Shown here one piece after another: positions 18,401 through 24,400 of a DNA stretch of 27,483 nt. Made by a program: the position numbers. Source of the stretch: Candidatus Micrarchaeia archaeon (GTDB lineage Archaea > Micrarchaeota > Micrarchaeia > Anstonellales > J096); assembly GCA_041500405.1 (NCBI GenBank), contig JBGQMB010000009.1, forward strand, positions 1 to 27,483, given 5' to 3'. The first letter of the stretch is position 1; the number at the start of each line of letters is the position of its first letter.

Positions 18401-21400
18401 TTCCCTATGCCGAAGCGCAGCGCGAAGTTCTTTATTGCCTCTTGGCAAATGCCCCTTGTCCTCAGGCCCCTTATCGTCGGAAGCCTCGGGTCGTCCCATC
18501 CCCAGAGCTTTCCAGACTCAACAAGCGGCACAAGGTGCCTCTTGCTTATCACGCTGTTCTTTATGTCCAGCCTTGAGAAGTGAATCAGCGTCGGCTTCCT
18601 CATTTCAGCAAGGTCCAGCATCCTGAAGTACAGCTCTTCCCTCAATTCGTATTCCTTGCTCCTCATGGCATGCGTTATGCCTTCTGTTGAGTCCATCAAT
18701 GGGGCCTCGAAGTCATATGTTGGCCAGACGGCGTACTTGTCGCCCTGCCTGTAATGCGGAGCCTCAACTATCCTGAGCATCGCCGGGTCCCTCATCACGC
18801 TGTTGAGCGCCTTTAAGTCTGATTTTAGAAGCACGACAGCCTCGCCTTCCCTAAACCCGTTGGAAAGCATCCTGTCAAAAAGCTCCAAATTCTTTTCCGG
18901 GGCGTTGTCCCTTCCGCTTATCGTGGTTCCCTTTGCCCTTGCGAGCTTTATCTCCTCGTTCGGTGCGTTGGTGACGTAAAGATGGCCTTTTCCCATCAGC
19001 GTTTTTGCAATCTCGTAAAGCCTTTTCATGCTGTCCGAGGTGTAACTTTCCTTTTTCCATTTGACGCCGAGCCATTCAAGGTCGGACTTCATTGCGTCAA
19101 CGTATTCCTGCTTCTCCTTTTTCGGGTTTGTGTCGTCGAAGCGCAAAAGCATGCTTCCGTTGTAGTCGTTTGCGACCTCGGATTCGAGGAAGATCGCCTT
19201 GGCGTGCCCGATGTGCGCGTATCCGGAAGGCTCCGGCGCGAACCTGGTAATCACCCCGTCCTGCGGATTCGGTATCGTGAACCGATGTTCCCTTGTTTTT
19301 TCAACCTTAGCAAAAGTGTAATTGGCCAGCTCCTTCTCCATCTCCTCCTTTGCCATGCCGTTTACTTCGCTTATTATGATTTCCGCCCTTTCCTTCACTT
19401 CCGCGGCTTTCTGCCTGAGCTCCGGCCTCTCGCCCATCGCCCTGCCCACAACCGCGTTCAAGCTTGCCTTTCCGTATTCCAGCGCGTTCTTGATTGCGTA
19501 TTTCCTTATGATAATGTCAACATCGTCCGGCATGTTTAAGAGTAAAGAGGAGAAAATTTAAAAAATAGGCTCATACGCCGAGGGCGCATGACCAATTGTA
19601 CTCCATCCAAATGTCGCTAGATATCCCGAATACCGTTGTTATTATCCACGGCGCAAGCACAAAAATGACTCCACAGGTTATCGCTCCTATAAGCAGGCTT
19701 GTCGCCCAACCATGGAACCTTGCCCTCTGCTCGGAAGCCGTCATCTGTCCTGCCGCATACACCACCGCTGCAAGCAGGAAGCACACCAGCATGAGCGCAG
19801 GTATTATCTCGCAGAAAAGGACGCCTGTCACTATCAGCGCATCCCTTAGCGGTTGCGCGAAGCACAGCATCGCCGCAAACAGCATCGCCGCAACAAACAG
19901 ATTCCTTTTCATTAGGGTTCACCTTTTGGACATATGCGTTTGCCTATTTAAAAAAGCTTCTTTTTTGTAAAACAAATAGAAAAATAGGCTTACTCCTACG
20001 CAGTCGTGCATATCATTCTTACGGATTGCAGATGCTGTGCCCAAAATATGCACTAGGTATGAACAGCTGTACTATCCACATCCCAAGCACAGTAATCACT
20101 CCGCACGTTATCGCGCCTATAAGCAGGCTCGTCGCCCACCCGTGGAACCTCGCCCTCTGCTCCGAGGATGCTATTTGGCCTGCAGCGTACATGACCGCCG
20201 CAAGCAGGAAGCATACAAGCATAAGCACAGGTATTATATCACAGAATAGGCCCTTTATCCACCATAATGCCATCCATAGCTGCCACTGCGCAAAACACAG
20301 GCCTGTCGCAATCAGCACCACTGCCAGAATAAACATATTATTTTTCATAATGCTCTCCTTTAGACGCCCGCGCAGCTTCTCCAGTCTTCTGGATACCAAG
20401 ATGGAGTGTTAAGAATTATAACAATCAGCCACGGCGCAAGCACGTACATGACCCCGCACGCTATTCCGCCTATGATAAGGCTTGTAGCCCACCCGTGGAA
20501 CCTCGCCCTCTGCTCAGCTGACGCCATCTGCCCCGCTGCATACATAATGGCGCCAAGCAGGAATGCGACCAGCATTAGCGCCGGAATGATCATGCAGAAG
20601 AAATATCTTATTGACCAAAGCACGCCTATCATTGCGCCCGTTGCGTCCGCAAATGCAAGCCCGGCAAACGCCGCAAGAACTGCCAATACAGACAATATCC
20701 TGTTTTCCATTTTGGTTCGCCTTCTAAACCATTAGCTGCACCGCCAGAAATATTCCGGCATTCCAAACAGAGTCACAATTATCCACGGCGCAAGCACGTA
20801 CATGACCCCGCACGCTATTCCGCCTATGATAAGGCTTGTAGCCCAACCATGGAACCTCGCCCTCTGGTCAGCTGACGCCATCTGCCCCGCAGCGTAAATG
20901 ATTGCGGCAAGCAGGAAGCACACCAGCATAAGCGCCGGAATGATCGTGCAGAAGAACCACTCGATATATATAAGTGCGCTGAATAACTGCCACTGCGCAA
21001 AGCACAATCCGGTCGCAATCAGCACTACTGCCAGAATAAGCATATTGTTTTTCATAACGGTTCACCTTGCGTATGCGTTGAGTATGACTGTTTAAAAATC
21101 TTTCAGCATTTCCGACGAATAATGTGGTCTTTTGTAATGAAAAATGAAAAAATAACGGTTAAAAAAACCGGATTCAGTAGCAAGCCGCTACAGTCGAGCT
21201 AGGCATGAACAGACCGATTATCCACGGCGCAAGCACGACGATTATCCCACACGTAATGCCGCCGATAAGCAGGCTTGTCGCCCACCCATGGAACCTCGCC
21301 CTCTGGTCAGCTGACGCCATCTGCCCCGCAGCGTAAATGATTGCGGCAAGCAGGAAGCACACCAGCATAAGCGCCGGCATAATCATACAGAAGAACGACC

Positions 21401-24400
21401 TGATTCCTTCAAGCGCGGTCGTAATCTGTTCTACTGCGAACACGGCTCCCATTGCAAGCAACACTATTGCAATTATTGCATAGTTTTTCATTTTTTATTC
21501 ACCTTGTGCCATAGAGTAGGTGAAACCCTTTAAAAGCTTTCTGTCCGCCGTAGCGGAAATGCCTTCTGGCAATTGGCATTTTTCATTCCAGCTTCAGGTC
21601 CTCTGCGCTTATCCTGCTTCCGAATTCCCTTATCAGCCTTTTCGCGTCGCCGTTGTATTTCTTAAGGAGCAAATCCAGCTCCTCTCCTGAAATCCTTCCG
21701 GCCAGCTCAAGCGCCTGCTTTTTCGTCTTTCCCGAGCAAACCAATTTCATATACTCGTAAATGCCCTTTTTCGTCAATTTTCCGTCCCTGAAAAGCAAAA
21801 GCGCCTCTTCCGTGATCTCTTCCGTGACGTTTATCTTCTCCCTGGAAAGCCTTGTCCAGGTGTCCTCCAAGGCAGTTGCCGCAACTGAAGCGTCAACGCC
21901 CTGCTCAAGCACAGACTCGAACAGCTGCAATTGCCTGCTCCGTATCATCTTTCCCGCAAGGTCCAGGTTTAGGATTCCGTTGAGCCATTCCAATGTTTTC
22001 TCATAAGTATCTGCCGCAATCCTATCCGCTTCCTTTTCCATCCCCTTGTCAATCTCAATCATTGGAATGTCAGTTTCAGGGTACATCCTTGCGCTTGTCG
22101 CCATCGGCCTCATGTAAGCGGTTGCGCCCGACGGAAGCGCCTGCCTTGTCTCTTTCGGTATTGTCTCAACAAGCGCCCTTTCCTTCAAATATCCCAATGC
22201 CTTGAGCGCTGTCTCCATGTTGGCAACAACTATGGCAAGCCCATCCTCTGCCTTCATGCCAAGCTCGTTTGCAATCTCGTTCAGAAAGTTAGCATTTATC
22301 CTGTATCCCGAAAGATCCTCGTCCGAATGGATTATGCCTTTCACGCCGGCCTGCTTCGCGTAATCCGAAAGCTCGGAGCCGTATCTCCTGTCAGGGCCAA
22401 TTTCCATCCCAAGGATGCCCTTATGGTGCGGCATGACGAGCGCAAGCGCCCTGTCCCCCCTGTCAAGCGCAGACTTCACAAACCCGTCAGAAACATATTT
22501 CCTAAGTATGTCCGTGACATCGGCAGGCTCCTGTTTTTTCAGCTGGCCATATGCCTTTTTTGCCCTCAATTTTTTAGCAATCTCCAGCAACGATTTCTGC
22601 CTTTTTGCCTCGTTCTCAACCCATTTGGGTATCATCCAAAGCTCCTGCGCGCCCTTTATTTCCACCCTGTTTCCGCCCTCTATGCTGACGTTGAGGTCCT
22701 GCCTTATTGTCCCTATTCCCCTTTCCGCGACACCCGCTATCCTCATCGCAAGGCCGATTTTCTCGGCGACCTCGGCGCAGTGCGCCTCATCCTTGATATC
22801 CGGCGCGGTCGTTATCTCTATAAGCGGTATGCCGAGCCTGTCCAGCGAGTAAACCCTTTTTCCCCCTGTTTCGCCTATTATGCCCGCGCTTTCCTCCTCG
22901 ATGCACAAGGTCTCTATCCCGACCTTTCCCTTTGACGTTTCAATGAATCCGTTCAATCCAAGCAGCATCGTCCTTTGGAATCCGGACGTGTTGCTTCCGT
23001 CTATCACTATTTTTCTCATGACAACCGGCCTGTCGACAACCTTCATGTTGAACTGCTTTGCCATGCCCAGCGCATAAACAAGCGCCTTCCTGTTCATCTT
23101 GTGCGGAGGTTCTTCATCAGCGTCAACAAGGCAGCAGGCATTGTCATAATAGTTGTATCCCACGCCCCTTCCCTTTTCCGCCTCCCTTCTTGCGGCTATG
23201 TCTATTTTTCCCAATTCAGAAAGCGAGAGGTGGAACTCGCGCGCCATCGTGCTTTGCGGAACGCCCTTTGCATAGGCGTGCGGGCAGTTGCAGAACAATT
23301 TCGCGGTATTGAGCCTTTGGTGCACCTCTATGCCAATCCTCAGACCGTCCATAAGACCAAATCACTCGTTAGGGTTAAAAGTCTTGCCTTATTTCAGCAG
23401 CACTTCCCTTACCCTGATGACGCCGCTTGGCGAAACCGAGGTTGAAAGGGCGATGCCAAGCTGGCTGAAGTATCCCTTCAGCTTTGCAGCGGAATAGCCT
23501 TTCGGCAGCTCCACGCTTACCTTAAAAACAGAATTAAGGGGCGTCTTCTCCTTTATCGCGCTTATCATCCTGTTGAACACAAGAAAAGCCCTTTCTTCCT
23601 CAGTATCCCCTGCCATAAGGCGCACTTGCTGGGATAAGCCAGGCATCTATTTTAATAAGTTTCGCAATCATCAAACTGCCATGGCCCAGAAGTCCTATCT
23701 TTTCCTGAAAGACAAGGTTTCCACCGGCATTTACGACCTGGACGTAATCCTTGAAGGAGGCTACCAGAAGGGCTCGTCCATTGCAATCATAGGCCCGCCC
23801 GGCATTGAAAAAAGCCTGCTTGGCATGCATCTCATGTCCTCGCAGAACGCGCTCAACAATTATGTTGCAATAGATTTTTCCCCTGATGACATCGAAAGGA
23901 AAGCCGAAGATTACGGGCTTTCGCTCAACGTCTCCAAATACATCGACATGTATTCCGTCCAGGCCGCGGTCGAGCCGAACAGGAACAGGGACATCGTCAT
24001 AGACGGCGTAACCGCGCTCAACGACCTCTCGCTTGAGATAAGCAGGCTCCTGAACGTGAAGGAGCAGGCGAATCCGATTAACTTCTATTTCCATTCCTTT
24101 TCATCCATGATGCTCGCGAACCAGTTTGACTCGCTGTTCAAGTTTTACCAGGTCGTTTCCGGCAGGATAAAGAGCGCGGAAGGGACGATGGCCATGCTGT
24201 TCGAGGAGGGGCTTCACGAAAAAACGCAGCTCAACACGTTCCTGAGGTCTGTTGACGCGACAATTGAGCTGAAGCAGGTTTCAAAGGGCAAGTGGGAGAT
24301 GTCTGTTTCAACGCTGGACACCCCGGTGTATTTCAGGATATCGACAGAGGGAATTGAGATAATGTAGGTGCTTGCTATGTATGAGGATCTTGTGAAAGCC

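Follow-up and report, generated by a model that had tools for sequence, protein, structure and literature searches.

The window analysed here is a whole 27,483-nucleotide stretch of contig C9 of a Micrarchaeota genome (G000), and it carries five intact genes for small proteins on the minus strand between 19571 and 21491. Of these, g5 (21174..21491, 105 aa) and g1 (19571..19912, 113 aa) are each predicted to form a transcription unit of their own, while g4 (20732..21055, 107 aa) opens a three-gene unit, g4-g3-g2. The second gene of this unit, g3 (20360..20710, 116 aa), follows g4 after a gap of 21 bp and has no promoter-like element of its own. The 109 aa of g2 (20019..20348) are counted from the ATG at 20348, which has GGAGA 6 nt upstream; a longer ORF with a TTG start extends to 20399, and we preferred the ATG because of the alignment with g4 (MKNNM...). 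The regions upstream of g5, g4 and g1 share a layout suggestive of promoters on the minus strand: TTTTAAA at 21529-21535, some 40 nt upstream of the ATG, with a GGTGA ribosome-binding site at 21499-21503 for g5 (21499..21535); TTTTTAAA at 21091-21098 and GGTGA at 21062-21066 for the g4-g3-g2 unit (21062..21098); and TTTTTTAAA at 19947-19955 and GGTGA at 19919-19923 for g1 (19919..19955). Terminator-like elements on the same strand comprise a stem with T-runs 3' of g5 (21140..21171), a T-rich tract 3' of g2 (19967..19990), and, after g1, a T-run with a stem that reaches into the gene's 3' end (19561..19591).

GatE and GluRS lie on either side of the array, with ribosomal protein genes nearby, and in G013, a genome of the same genus, the array is found in this slot too. 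Neither the ATPase nor a polytopic gene of the machine described below was found within the window. We examined Logan contigs from three sediment-metagenome runs (X1-X3) and found the array covered in 30, 30 and 28 of 30 bins, by pieces of at least 95% identity, 27 of 29 of them at 99% or more. These contigs were interrupted at the repeated cores of the array, and none from the three runs showed an alternative joint. A profile of the five copies had exactly seven matches in the 916-kb genome, namely the array genes and two more on contig C3 (C3:40126-40458 and C3:40465-40818), in line with the gene count of an earlier note on this DNA. The seven proteins are 105-117 aa long.

Identity of the array copies to the first one is 53-64%, and 43 columns of their alignment are invariant. 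In every copy, an N-terminal signal-like helix ends in xFA and is followed by two long hydrophobic helices that form a hairpin, and by a C-terminal Cys; the loop between the helices reads AAGQMASAEQRARFHGWATS, with the invariant pattern GQ..RAR..WA. The earlier description, of about 110 aa with a signal peptide, two helices and a basic loop, was borne out by the alignment and by our AF2 model of g5, which again gave a signal helix and a hairpin (pLDDT 82.1, against 81 before); past the signal there are two helices and, in contrast to type IV pilins, no beta domain. The C-terminal Cys that the note had singled out is present, but the conserved feature is a Cys pair: 133 of 138 family members have both residues, 5 have neither and none has only one. 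The net loop charge is +1 in 136 of the 138. The core is under purifying selection, with omega of 0.09-0.19 at dS 0.3-1.7 among the array paralogs, and mean pairwise column identity falls from 0.79 in the core to 0.24 in the mature N-terminus and 0.17 in the C-tail. The variable termini are predicted to be surface-exposed. The signal peptides of g4 and g2 are nearly identical (pN 0.02), and the array is a genus-specific expansion.

We then compared the proteins with profile libraries. PF18895 was the top Pfam match in all five window copies, the best being g5 (E 1.2e-4, 22.5 bits; Pfam cut-off 26.6 bits), which also matched NCBIfam NF045849, a pilin-like conjugal transfer protein of a mycoplasma ICE, at E 2e-6. 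The reported TrbC (6.6e-6) and T4SS_pilin (1.2e-4) hits were reproduced for the 117-aa copy on C3, and the TrbC score of a C3 copy was 26.7 against a cut-off of 27.9. All seven copies are under the curated Pfam and NCBIfam cut-offs, so the earlier statement that no curated Pfam row exists stands for this genome; it does not extend to relatives: 34 of 151 phylum genomes carry genes above the PF18895 cut-off that the family profile finds as well. One such gene is in the same taxonomic family, f1 (G011:C25:32922-33137, 27.4 bits), and further cases are G106:C1:348654 and G048:C4. The family profile found 524 representatives at E<=1e-3 (546 previously), and among 138 members scanned at E 1e-3, PF18895 was matched in 32, TrbC in 20 and the next family in 8, close to the 26 and 19 of 130, with others at no more than 8, obtained before. 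The NCBIfam TrwL/VirB2 model was matched by 7 of the 138 and every other model by at most one. In the ESM-Atlas, the nearest clusters (score 0.92) are 100% Archaea and auto-named TrbC/VIRB2 family. Relatives are already auto-named "TrbC/VirB2 family" in public databases; a search of the literature found no published account of such pilins in DPANN.

It is highly improbable that these are other small exported two-helix proteins, of a holin-, bacteriocin- or immunity-like kind, which match pilin models by chance. Hydrophobic hairpins do draw spurious matches (Cyt_bd_oxida_II in 8 and Yip1 in 7 of the 138 members), the copies of this genome match pilin models only sub-threshold, and the fold search is uninformative: as had been noted, Foldseek with the pilin model returned generic helical hairpins only, and nothing specific emerged from the PDB profile search, where TrwL was reached only at E 0.23. 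However, only pilin models recur, over three libraries or tools, relatives exceed a curated cut-off, and the family is linked to and co-occurs with a VirB4-like ATPase whose partner has a modelled fold like that of a VirB4 N-domain. Homology is established at the family level. Profiles, gene context and model support and strengthen the original assignment to VirB2/TrbC/T4SS_pilin-type pilins rather than archaeal type IV pilins.

The gene context in relatives follows the T4SS core order of pilin, polytopic protein, VirB3/VirB4N-like protein and VirB4/CedB-like ATPase. In f12 (G116, G024, G094), the whole machine is a single locus on one strand, in the order two pilins, six polytopic proteins, two 2TM proteins (both VirB3/VirB4N-like), the ATPase, and proteins of 99, 144, 232 and 829 aa. 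Two or three pilins lie immediately upstream of the module in f18 (G239, G106, G068), and the order in f29 (G278) and f14 (G158, G160) is pilin, polytopic protein, 2TM protein, ATPase. A compact second cluster in f10/f11 (G113, G120, G042) consists of a pilin, a polytopic protein, a protein of about 238 aa and an ATPase paralog. Linkage was thus seen in 12 of 12 fetched loci from these six families (f10, f11, f12, f14, f18, f29), which were chosen on coordinates suggesting it and therefore yield no frequency. Of the clusters previously reported, we recovered those in G158 and G160, but in G161 neither pilin nor ATPase was found with the queries used. The view that linkage is the exception fits the unlinked array of G000 but not these 12 loci.

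In G000 the machine genes are dispersed over several contigs: the seven pilin genes on C9 (five) and C3 (two), a polytopic membrane family in the VirB6 position, with one array on C22 (six genes) and another on C2 (four or five), and a module on C8 that encodes a 279-aa protein, the VirB4/CedB-like ATPase (526 aa) and three further conserved proteins. The best NCBIfam matches of the ATPase were CedB (9e-20; 70.8 bits against an equivalog cut-off of 700) and three VirB4-type conjugation ATPases, all above HerA. It has no HAS barrel, and the canonical HerA, with its HAS barrel, is a separate gene at window 8129-9865. We modelled the 279-aa protein encoded upstream of the ATPase (AF2 pLDDT 80.6) and found that ranks 1-11 listed by Foldseek against the PDB were all R388 T4SS, nine being TrwK/VirB4 chains by title; the best of these had E 3.6e-4 and prob 1.0 over 186 columns. 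VIA against TrwK residues 15-376 gave Z 7.6 over 160 residues. The modelled fold thus resembles the N-domain of R388 VirB4, and the protein joins a VirB3-like TM hairpin and a VirB4 N-domain in one chain.

Of the Micrarchaeota genomes searched, 267 of 301 had the pilin family, 172 of 193 the ATPase and 171 of 193 the polytopic family, counts that include related, non-independent genomes. All three are absent from f13, f17, f19, f20, f21 and f22, and within f14 occur only in genus g97; family-level presence and absence of the pilin closely follows that of the ATPase and polytopic family. Pilin copies number 1-10 per genome across the phylum, and we again found 2-7 in 19 of 19 genomes of the taxonomic family of G000. 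We give little credence to the idea that an integrated conjugative element or plasmid carries the genes for its own transfer. Sets of VirB2, VirB4 and VirB6 do usually sit on mobile elements, and the best NCBIfam matches include ICE proteins of mycoplasma and clostridia; against this stand the chromosomal slot shared with G013, the breadth of the family, an ATPase 50-70% identical across phylum genomes, a search for the coupling protein (T4CP, PF02534) that found none, and viral contigs and plasmids, with one weak 20-residue match in the former and no match in the latter.

The array probably encodes diversified VirB2/TrbC/T4SS_pilin-type (TedC-like) pilins of a chromosomal T4SS-derived machine kept in most Micrarchaeota. 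The pilin would be exported by Sec, cut by signal peptidase I past xFA, and kept as a helical hairpin in the membrane, its basic loop on the cytoplasmic side. A disulfide from the Cys before helix 1 to the C-terminal Cys may staple its open extracellular end. The VirB4-like ATPase and polytopic platform would extract the hairpins and build from them, together with membrane lipid, a thin stacked tube, its lumen lined by the invariant loop and its outside covered by the variable N- and C-termini. The five genes may then offer alternative outer surfaces over an unchanged core, probably for host-cell contact or different partners, and the cargo could be DNA imported as in Ced/Ted or another symbiont-host transfer. 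Such a machine is a candidate means for tiny symbiotic archaea to connect to their hosts. The sub-threshold copies, generic fold matches, array remote from the ATPase and lack of a T4CP match weigh against the pilin reading.

Natural proteins with 2-7 fused hairpin repeats (P0054, P0058, P0067, P0055, P0056) suit membrane residence better than polymerisation, unless processed. They also favour a less likely alternative, in which these are true VirB2 relatives with no extracellular pilus, in the ancestral 'bona fide membrane protein' state: membrane-held channel subunits beside the polytopic proteins, their paralogs tuning channel composition. Consistent with this, hhalign aligned the pilin hairpin with TM helices 1 and 2 of the polytopic family (prob 36%, E 3.8e-4), two f12 polytopic ORFs also matched the pilin HMM, Beltran et al. 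suggest an origin of pilins from VirB6-related membrane proteins (excerpts of PMC9905601), and monoderm T4SSs as a rule have no pilins or pili (excerpts of PMC12102498). However, a frozen core with variation in two extracellular termini is the pattern expected of an exposed surface, the copy numbers and separate strong-looking promoters suit a bulk structural subunit, and the archaeal relatives CedA1 and TedC make pili in single-membrane cells (PMC9905601, as excerpted).

Among the closest known systems is the Ted DNA-import system of Thermoproteales (Pyrobaculum calidifontis). Its pilin, TedC, by its description in excerpts of PMC9905601, is likewise VirB2-like, archaeal and chromosomal, a helical hairpin whose SPase I signal is cleavable (AVA|QA in TedC; here predicted, xFA then Q/V/D), and its gene is accompanied by those of a VirB6-like polytopic protein and a VirB4-like ATPase. 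Unlike TedC as excerpted there, the Micrarchaeota pilins share a conserved Cys pair and occur as many paralogs per genome, beside at least six polytopic paralogs, and the system differs in a split VirB4 with its N-domain fused to a VirB3-like hairpin, three extra conserved proteins in the module and often dispersed genes. The same excerpts describe CedA1, TedC and VirB2 pili as pilin-lipid tubes, and report that the head-to-tail cyclisation proposed for T-pilin, where we suggest a disulfide staple, was not seen in the cryo-EM map. VirB2/TrbC/TrwL (PF04956, PF18895, NF033899) share the size, signal peptide, two hydrophobic helices and short positive loop, with weak but recurrent profile matches and some relatives above the PF18895 cut-off, but the setting here is archaeal and monoderm, with no outer-membrane complex, and the genes are chromosomal core rather than plasmid-borne, with no T4CP found.

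Patescibacteria (CPR) are also ultrasmall, host-dependent organisms with a chromosomal T4SS, although a bacterial one; excerpts of PMC12102498 describe it as MPF-FATA type, with most clusters lacking a relaxase, and as essential for epibiotic growth, a pilus of its VirB2-like homologues not having been demonstrated. As here, its pilins form arrays (2-11 genes), often away from virB4, and the VirB4 N-terminus has a separate homologue, TrsD; its array paralogs share much less identity (mean 25%, maximum 54%, against 53-64% here), and VirB3-VirB4 fusions are given as absent, whereas the VirB4 N-domain-like protein here carries a fused VirB3-like hairpin. The Ced DNA-import system (Sulfolobales, Aeropyrum) also has an archaeal VirB2-like pilin, CedA1, which forms a pilin-lipid tube, and CedB is the best NCBIfam match of the Micrarchaeota ATPase. 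CedA1 is unprocessed, unlike the window copies with their signal peptide, and the f14 pilins (G158, G160) resemble it in appearing to have none.

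A profile of the five array copies, run against the genome (916 kb in 60 contigs, 86% complete), found seven pilin genes: the five in the window and a tandem pair on contig C3 (C3:40126-40458 and 40465-40818) that is 27-33% identical to them. The count of seven VirB2/T4SS-type paralogs in the earlier note was thus recovered, and its observation held overall. All five window genes are intact, small and on the minus strand, as are both flanking genes, GatE (21583-23352) on one side and glutamyl-tRNA synthetase (GluRS; 17845-19533) on the other. They are g5 (21174-21491, 105 aa), g4 (20732-21055, 107 aa), g3 (20360-20710, 116 aa), g2 (20019-20348, 109 aa counted from its ATG) and g1 (19571-19912, 113 aa), and their identity to the first copy is 53-64%. 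Read from the minus strand they form three putative transcription units: g5 and g1 each stand alone, and g4-g3-g2 are grouped, 21 and 11 bp apart. A TTTTAAA-type A/T box about 40 nt before the ATG and a GGTGA ribosome-binding site lie ahead of all three units, and T-runs, two of them also reported by a consensus scan, lie behind all three; the boxes and T-runs probably represent promoters and terminators. Elsewhere in the window, a plus-strand run at 4562-8117 contains four ankyrin-repeat genes, whose products measure 205, 192, 224 and 207 aa; the third and fourth are separated by the gene for a 331-aa treble-clef zinc-finger/CapR-homology protein. A 555-aa ORF at 24606-26270 (plus strand) has a ThyX (Thy1) domain only at residues ~379-520, and nothing in the long region N-terminal to it matches Pfam at 1e-4.

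We then considered whether the array could be a recent duplication or an assembly artefact. In three sediment-metagenome runs (X1-X3), Logan contigs span 30, 30 and 28 of the 30 array bins; their pieces are at least 95% identical to the array, 27 of 29 at 99% or above. These contigs end at repeated cores, where depth is doubled, and none of them contains an alternative joint across the array. They lend the array weak independent support, weak since the source sample may be among the runs. The hairpin cores of the array copies have an omega of 0.09-0.19 at a dS of 0.3-1.7, indicating that the copies are old and kept by selection. This divergence, together with the cover in independent contigs, led us to reject both possibilities.

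Alignment of all seven copies revealed a common build. The N-terminus is basic and is followed by a hydrophobic stretch closing on xFA (VFA|V, CFA|Q, AFA|D), an end compatible with cleavage by signal peptidase I under the -3/-1 rule; the putative signal peptide was called by eye. Behind it lies a variable, Cys-bearing segment of ~15 residues. Helix 1 closes on YAAGQ, the loop between the helices is MASAEQRARFHGWATS, helix 2 holds a conserved Gly and Pro, and the C-terminal tail is variable, with a Cys close to its end. AlphaFold2 (46 sequences) returned a signal helix and a long helical hairpin (pLDDT 82.1), with helices at residues 3-18, 20-58 and 61-95 and no strands. For a wider set, we started from the best 150 representatives, set aside 12 of more than 200 aa and one of 65 aa, and added g5 to the remaining 137, giving 138 members. 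In this set Y53, G56, A61, R64, W70, A71, G77 and C104 are conserved in at least 90% of members, and 136 of 138 have a loop with net charge +1. Alignments, model and loop charge agree with the build of T4SS_pilin and TrbC/VirB2 proteins, about 100 aa with a leader, two hydrophobic helices and a short charged loop.

The C-terminal Cys of the earlier description is present, but it does not stand alone: 133 of the 138 members have both an N-proximal and a C-terminal Cys, five have no Cys, and none has one alone. If the basic loop faces the cytoplasm, both Cys would be extracytoplasmic, so that they would most naturally form a disulfide that staples the hairpin at its open end. This suggests that the Cys pair may be a new way of locking a conjugative-type pilin. 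A lipoprotein was also considered and rejected, as the Cys by the signal end of g1, g2 and g4 lies outside any lipobox and g3 and g5 lack it.

Next, we assessed the family of these proteins. The Pfam model T4SS_pilin (PF18895) was the top match for five of five window copies (E 1.2e-4 to 0.24). The earlier statement that no Pfam model matches at curated cut-offs is true of this genome's own copies: the window copies score 11.9-22.5 bits against a PF18895 gathering cut-off of 26.6, and the 117-aa C3 copy scores 26.7 bits on TrbC (PF04956, TrbC/VirB2) against 27.9. Relatives, however, do pass. Scanning 151 phylum genomes with PF18895 gave matches in 89 and scores above the curated cut-off in 34, including G011:C25:32922-33137, from the same taxonomic family as our genome, G106:C1:348654-348842 and G048:C4:32350-32577. 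The family profile finds these same three genes at E 1e-38 to 1e-40, and the copies studied here are therefore weak-scoring members of a qualifying family. Among the 138 members, matches at E≤1e-3 were to PF18895 (32), TrbC (20), Cyt_bd_oxida_II (8) and Yip1 (7), and TrwL/VirB2 was the sole recurrent NCBIfam model (7 of 138). In addition, g5 matches the mycoplasma ICE 'pilin-like conjugal transfer protein' of NCBIfam at 2e-6. In the ESM Atlas it adjoins archaeal clusters (score 0.92) to which the name 'TrbC/VIRB2 family protein' has been assigned automatically, so that this label is already present in databases.

Structure searches were uninformative, as expected of a hairpin fold. The earlier report that PDB profile and Foldseek searches gave nothing specific was reproduced. 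Fold searches with the pilin model returned generic helical hairpins alone: Foldseek found no PDB match at E≤0.001, and in a wide VIA search the highest Z was 8.0, reached by ESCRT-III and designed hairpins. The PDB profile search gave nothing below E 0.09, with TrwL at 0.23 and no TedC or CedA1 chain listed at E≤10. An archaeal type IV pilin, with a class III leader, one N-terminal helix and a beta-rich domain, was rejected, since the model has three helices, two of them forming a hairpin behind the signal, and no strands. A separate type IV filament system does exist in the genome, as had been noted; two T2SSE-type assembly ATPases score above cut-off.

The array copies vary unevenly along their length: mean pairwise column identity is 0.79 for the core but drops to 0.24 for the mature N-terminus and to 0.17 for the C-tail. 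In a conjugative pilus, both pilin termini point outward. The loop faces the lumen in solved conjugative pili, as described in the accessible part of PMC9905601. On this geometry, the interior would be frozen across the array and the exterior variable. The signal peptides of g2 and g4 are nearly identical (pN 0.02, pS 0.41) and their cores differ more, which hints at recombination between array members. In G013, a genome of the same genus, an array occupies the same GatE-GluRS slot, with two contigs ending within it; in five other genomes of the taxonomic family, a solitary copy sits elsewhere. A tree of 39 pilins placed the window genes and the G013 array genes in one clade (support 97/99), the sole supported one, the rest of the tree being mostly without supported grouping. 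These findings indicate that the five-gene array is a genus-level expansion. A search for related loci with the seven-copy alignment gave three, all in one same-genus genome.

We then turned to the machinery. A five-gene module encoding proteins of 279, 526, 144, 232 and 829 aa (locus L010, C8:12186-18242) is kept in every relative fetched. Its 526-aa ATPase, the one member of the HerA/VirB4 superfamily in this genome that lacks a HAS barrel, matches DUF87, AAA_10 and P-loop_TraG. The NCBIfam matches were led by CedB (9.3e-20), mycoplasma ICE VirB4 (2.8e-19) and CD1110-type VirB4 (2.8e-18), followed by CedD and TraC, with HerA lower at 3.4e-14. All of these scores are far below equivalog cut-offs, and on CedB the ATPase reaches 70.8 bits against 700, which does not qualify it as a CedB equivalog. 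It is not HerA itself, because canonical HerA (579 aa, HAS barrel and DUF87) is a separate minus-strand gene at 8129-9865 in the window, 10 kb from the pilin array.

The 279-aa protein upstream of the ATPase combines a pair of TM helices with a cytoplasmic domain. Its AlphaFold2 model (50 sequences, pLDDT 80.6) was searched with Foldseek against the PDB, and ranks 1-11 among the rows listed were all R388 T4SS entries, nine of them TrwK/VirB4 chains by title (best E 3.6e-4, prob 1.00, 186 columns). By VIA, TrwK (Z 7.6, 160 residues, chain residues 15-376) ranked 25th among generic hairpin matches and was the sole match spanning most of the model. We therefore read the 279-aa and 526-aa proteins as a putative split VirB4, with the N-domain fused to a VirB3-like hairpin; N-domain, RecA-like ATPase and VirB3-like TM hairpin were all found, divided over two genes. 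Among the remaining module proteins, the 144-aa one has two TM helices and a weak match to the CD3337/EF1877 mobilome membrane family (2.4e-4), the 232-aa one is a coiled-coil with a winged-helix-like end, and the 829-aa one has two TM helices and a large outer domain.

Candidates for a VirB6-like platform were found in two further arrays, one of six genes (C22:5741-13332) and one of four to five (C2:45855-51956), which form the L020/L021 pair of loci. They encode very diverged polytopic paralogs of 355-625 aa, homologous to the polytopic VirB6-position protein of G158 and G160 (BLAST 1e-5 to 1e-8, local HMM 56-62 bits). As these proteins have no Pfam or NCBIfam match, their VirB6 identity rests on position and on one weak hhalign result, in which the pilin hairpin aligned (prob 36%, E 3.8e-4) to TM helices 1 and 2 of the polytopic family. 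This match may faintly echo the relation of CedA to CedA1 and of VirB6 to VirB2 described by Beltran et al. in the accessible part of PMC9905601.

In the window itself, no such ATPase or polytopic gene lies beside the pilin array. In relatives, 12 fetched loci from six taxonomic families encode a pilin together with an ATPase of VirB4 type and a polytopic protein in the VirB6 position, and the pilin genes there follow T4SS order; loci were fetched where coordinate tables pointed to proximity and are not a random sample. In family f14 (G158 and G160) the order is pilin, 314/335-aa polytopic protein, 2TM protein and ATPase. The compact clusters previously assigned to G158, G160 and G161 were found in the first two, but in G161 the family profile, the G158 pilin and the G158 ATPase all gave nothing. 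The f14 pilins (L015, G158 9923-10237; L016, G160) start at the mature part (MAVETQ.. and MGIESQ..), seemingly without a signal peptide, and have no cysteines. In f18 (G239, G106, G068), two or three pilins lie directly upstream of the module, and in f29 (G278) a pilin and a 325-aa seven-TM protein precede it. The f12 loci (L038, L039, L040; G116, G024, G094) are co-directional over ~16 kb and contain two pilins, six polytopic genes, two 2TM genes, the ATPase and genes of 99, 144, 232 and 829 aa. Here the last ~100 ATPase residues form the separate 99-aa ORF, the 2TM/VirB4N-like gene is doubled, and the ATPase ORF of G024 has an N-terminal extension (1047 aa). A compact second cluster in f10/f11 (L041 in G113, L042 in G120, L043 in G042) consists of a pilin of 120-127 aa, a polytopic protein of ~350 aa, a ~238-aa protein and an ATPase paralog (380-460 aa, 28-43% identical to the main ATPase). 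Given the homology of the C22 and C2 arrays to the G158 and G160 proteins, the C3 pair, the six-gene C22 array and the C8 module look like the f12 locus broken in three; the window array is an extra pilin locus.

The distribution of the three families was also investigated. At E≤1e-5 the pilin family was detected in 267 of 301 phylum genomes, each with between 1 and 10 matches, the ATPase in 172 of 193 genomes at least 90% complete, and the polytopic family in 171 of 193, mostly in 6-10 copies. These tallies take in two unpublished genomes, G047 and G208, and nothing specific rests on either. All three are present in families f1 (that of our genome) to f7, f10-f12, f15, f16, f18, f26, f27 and f29, and all three are absent from f13 (0 of 7 in each search), f17 (0 of 5), f19, f20, f21 and f22; in f14 they occur in genus g97 only. 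The exceptions are f30 (G303), where the pilin matches but neither of the other two families does, one f11 genome without the polytopic family, and two f10 genomes and one f11 genome without pilin matches. One of these last three, G092, does have the ATPase and polytopic families. PF18895 matches weakly in G128 (f20) and G038 (f14), and the family profile finds neither. The three families thus co-occur at family level, as a pattern and not a statistic, since related genomes are not independent.

Housekeeping flanks, phylum-wide spread, lack of a coupling-protein (T4CP) match and lack of a plasmid match are evidence against the array being a mobile element. PF02534 had no match in this 86% complete genome, and PF12696 reached at best 12.9 bits, on HerA; this search covered the coupling protein, and no search for relaxases was made. 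A tblastn search of a plasmid collection with a C3 copy gave no match, and viral contigs gave one weak match of 20 residues.

Taken together, the recurrence of Pfam and NCBIfam models, the relatives above cut-off, the linkage and the co-occurrence support the VirB2/T4SS-type pilin interpretation. The pilin would be exported by Sec, its signal cleaved, and the mature protein held in the membrane as disulfide-stapled hairpins. A VirB4-like motor on the polytopic platform would then extract and polymerise the hairpins into a pilin-lipid tube, by analogy with Ced, Ted, F and T pili (PMC9905601), with the array supplying alternative outer surfaces. The main rival is that the proteins stay in the membrane as channel subunits and form no pilus. 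Natural proteins with two to seven fused hairpins suit this rival well: P0054 (1071 aa), P0058 (632 aa), P0067 (342 aa), P0055 (295 aa) and P0056 (278 aa) are single ORFs in which every repeat retains a separate Cys pair and GQ..R..W/Y loop. Some of them carry a large extracellular domain at the N-terminus. Such ORFs might encode true 4-14-TM membrane proteins or polyproteins cut into pilins. For a pilus, the cargo might be imported DNA, as in Ced/Ted; alternatively, by analogy with the T4SS that a Saccharibacterium requires for epibiotic growth (PMC12102498), transfer might be tied to the host-dependent life of these archaea.

A wider reading is possible, although we regard it as tentative and rather doubtful. 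Micrarchaeota, like Patescibacteria, may have converted what remained of a conjugation machine into an organ central to living on a host. A chromosomal VirB2/VirB6-position/VirB3-VirB4 apparatus would make disulfide-stapled pilin-lipid tubes that reach from the symbiont's membrane to the host cell, with DNA, lipids or other cargo moving through or along them, and arrays would provide interchangeable outer surfaces that set or widen host range; this would be convergence between CPR and DPANN, the two great radiations of ultrasmall symbionts. To our knowledge, it has not been settled by what means DPANN archaea attach to their hosts and exploit them, and the bearing on DPANN-host contact is the main value of these results. 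They give a complete and testable parts list for Micrarchaeota: the pilin, the polytopic family as its platform, the VirB3/VirB4 motor in split form and three accessories, a set kept in about nine-tenths of the genomes searched. The pilin array offers handles on host contact, namely filaments, contact sites and variable termini against host range.

Our literature search found no paper on VirB2-type pilins or such a machine in DPANN. In the accessible part of preprint 10.64898/2026.05.20.726742, VirB2 concerns a bacterial-type plasmid. The host-contact candidates known so far are confined to particular lineages, an example being the giant SPEARE-type proteins of Nanohaloarchaeota, which have a VirB4-like domain (PMC10266531). 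A direct bacterial parallel to the Micrarchaeota parts set is the Saccharibacterium T4SS, which is essential for epibiotic growth according to the accessible part of PMC12102498. The putative separate VirB4 N-domain protein found here recalls TrsD, likewise a separate protein, in MPF-FATA systems and in Patescibacteria (PMC12102498). CedA1 is unprocessed, as the f14 pilins appear to be. Published work already describes VirB2-like pili in archaea (CedA1, TedC) and, in Patescibacteria, VirB2-like arrays; our results support, as new, a chromosomal and dispersed relative of the T4SS in Micrarchaeota that is rich in paralogs and whose VirB2-type pilins would be Cys-stapled.
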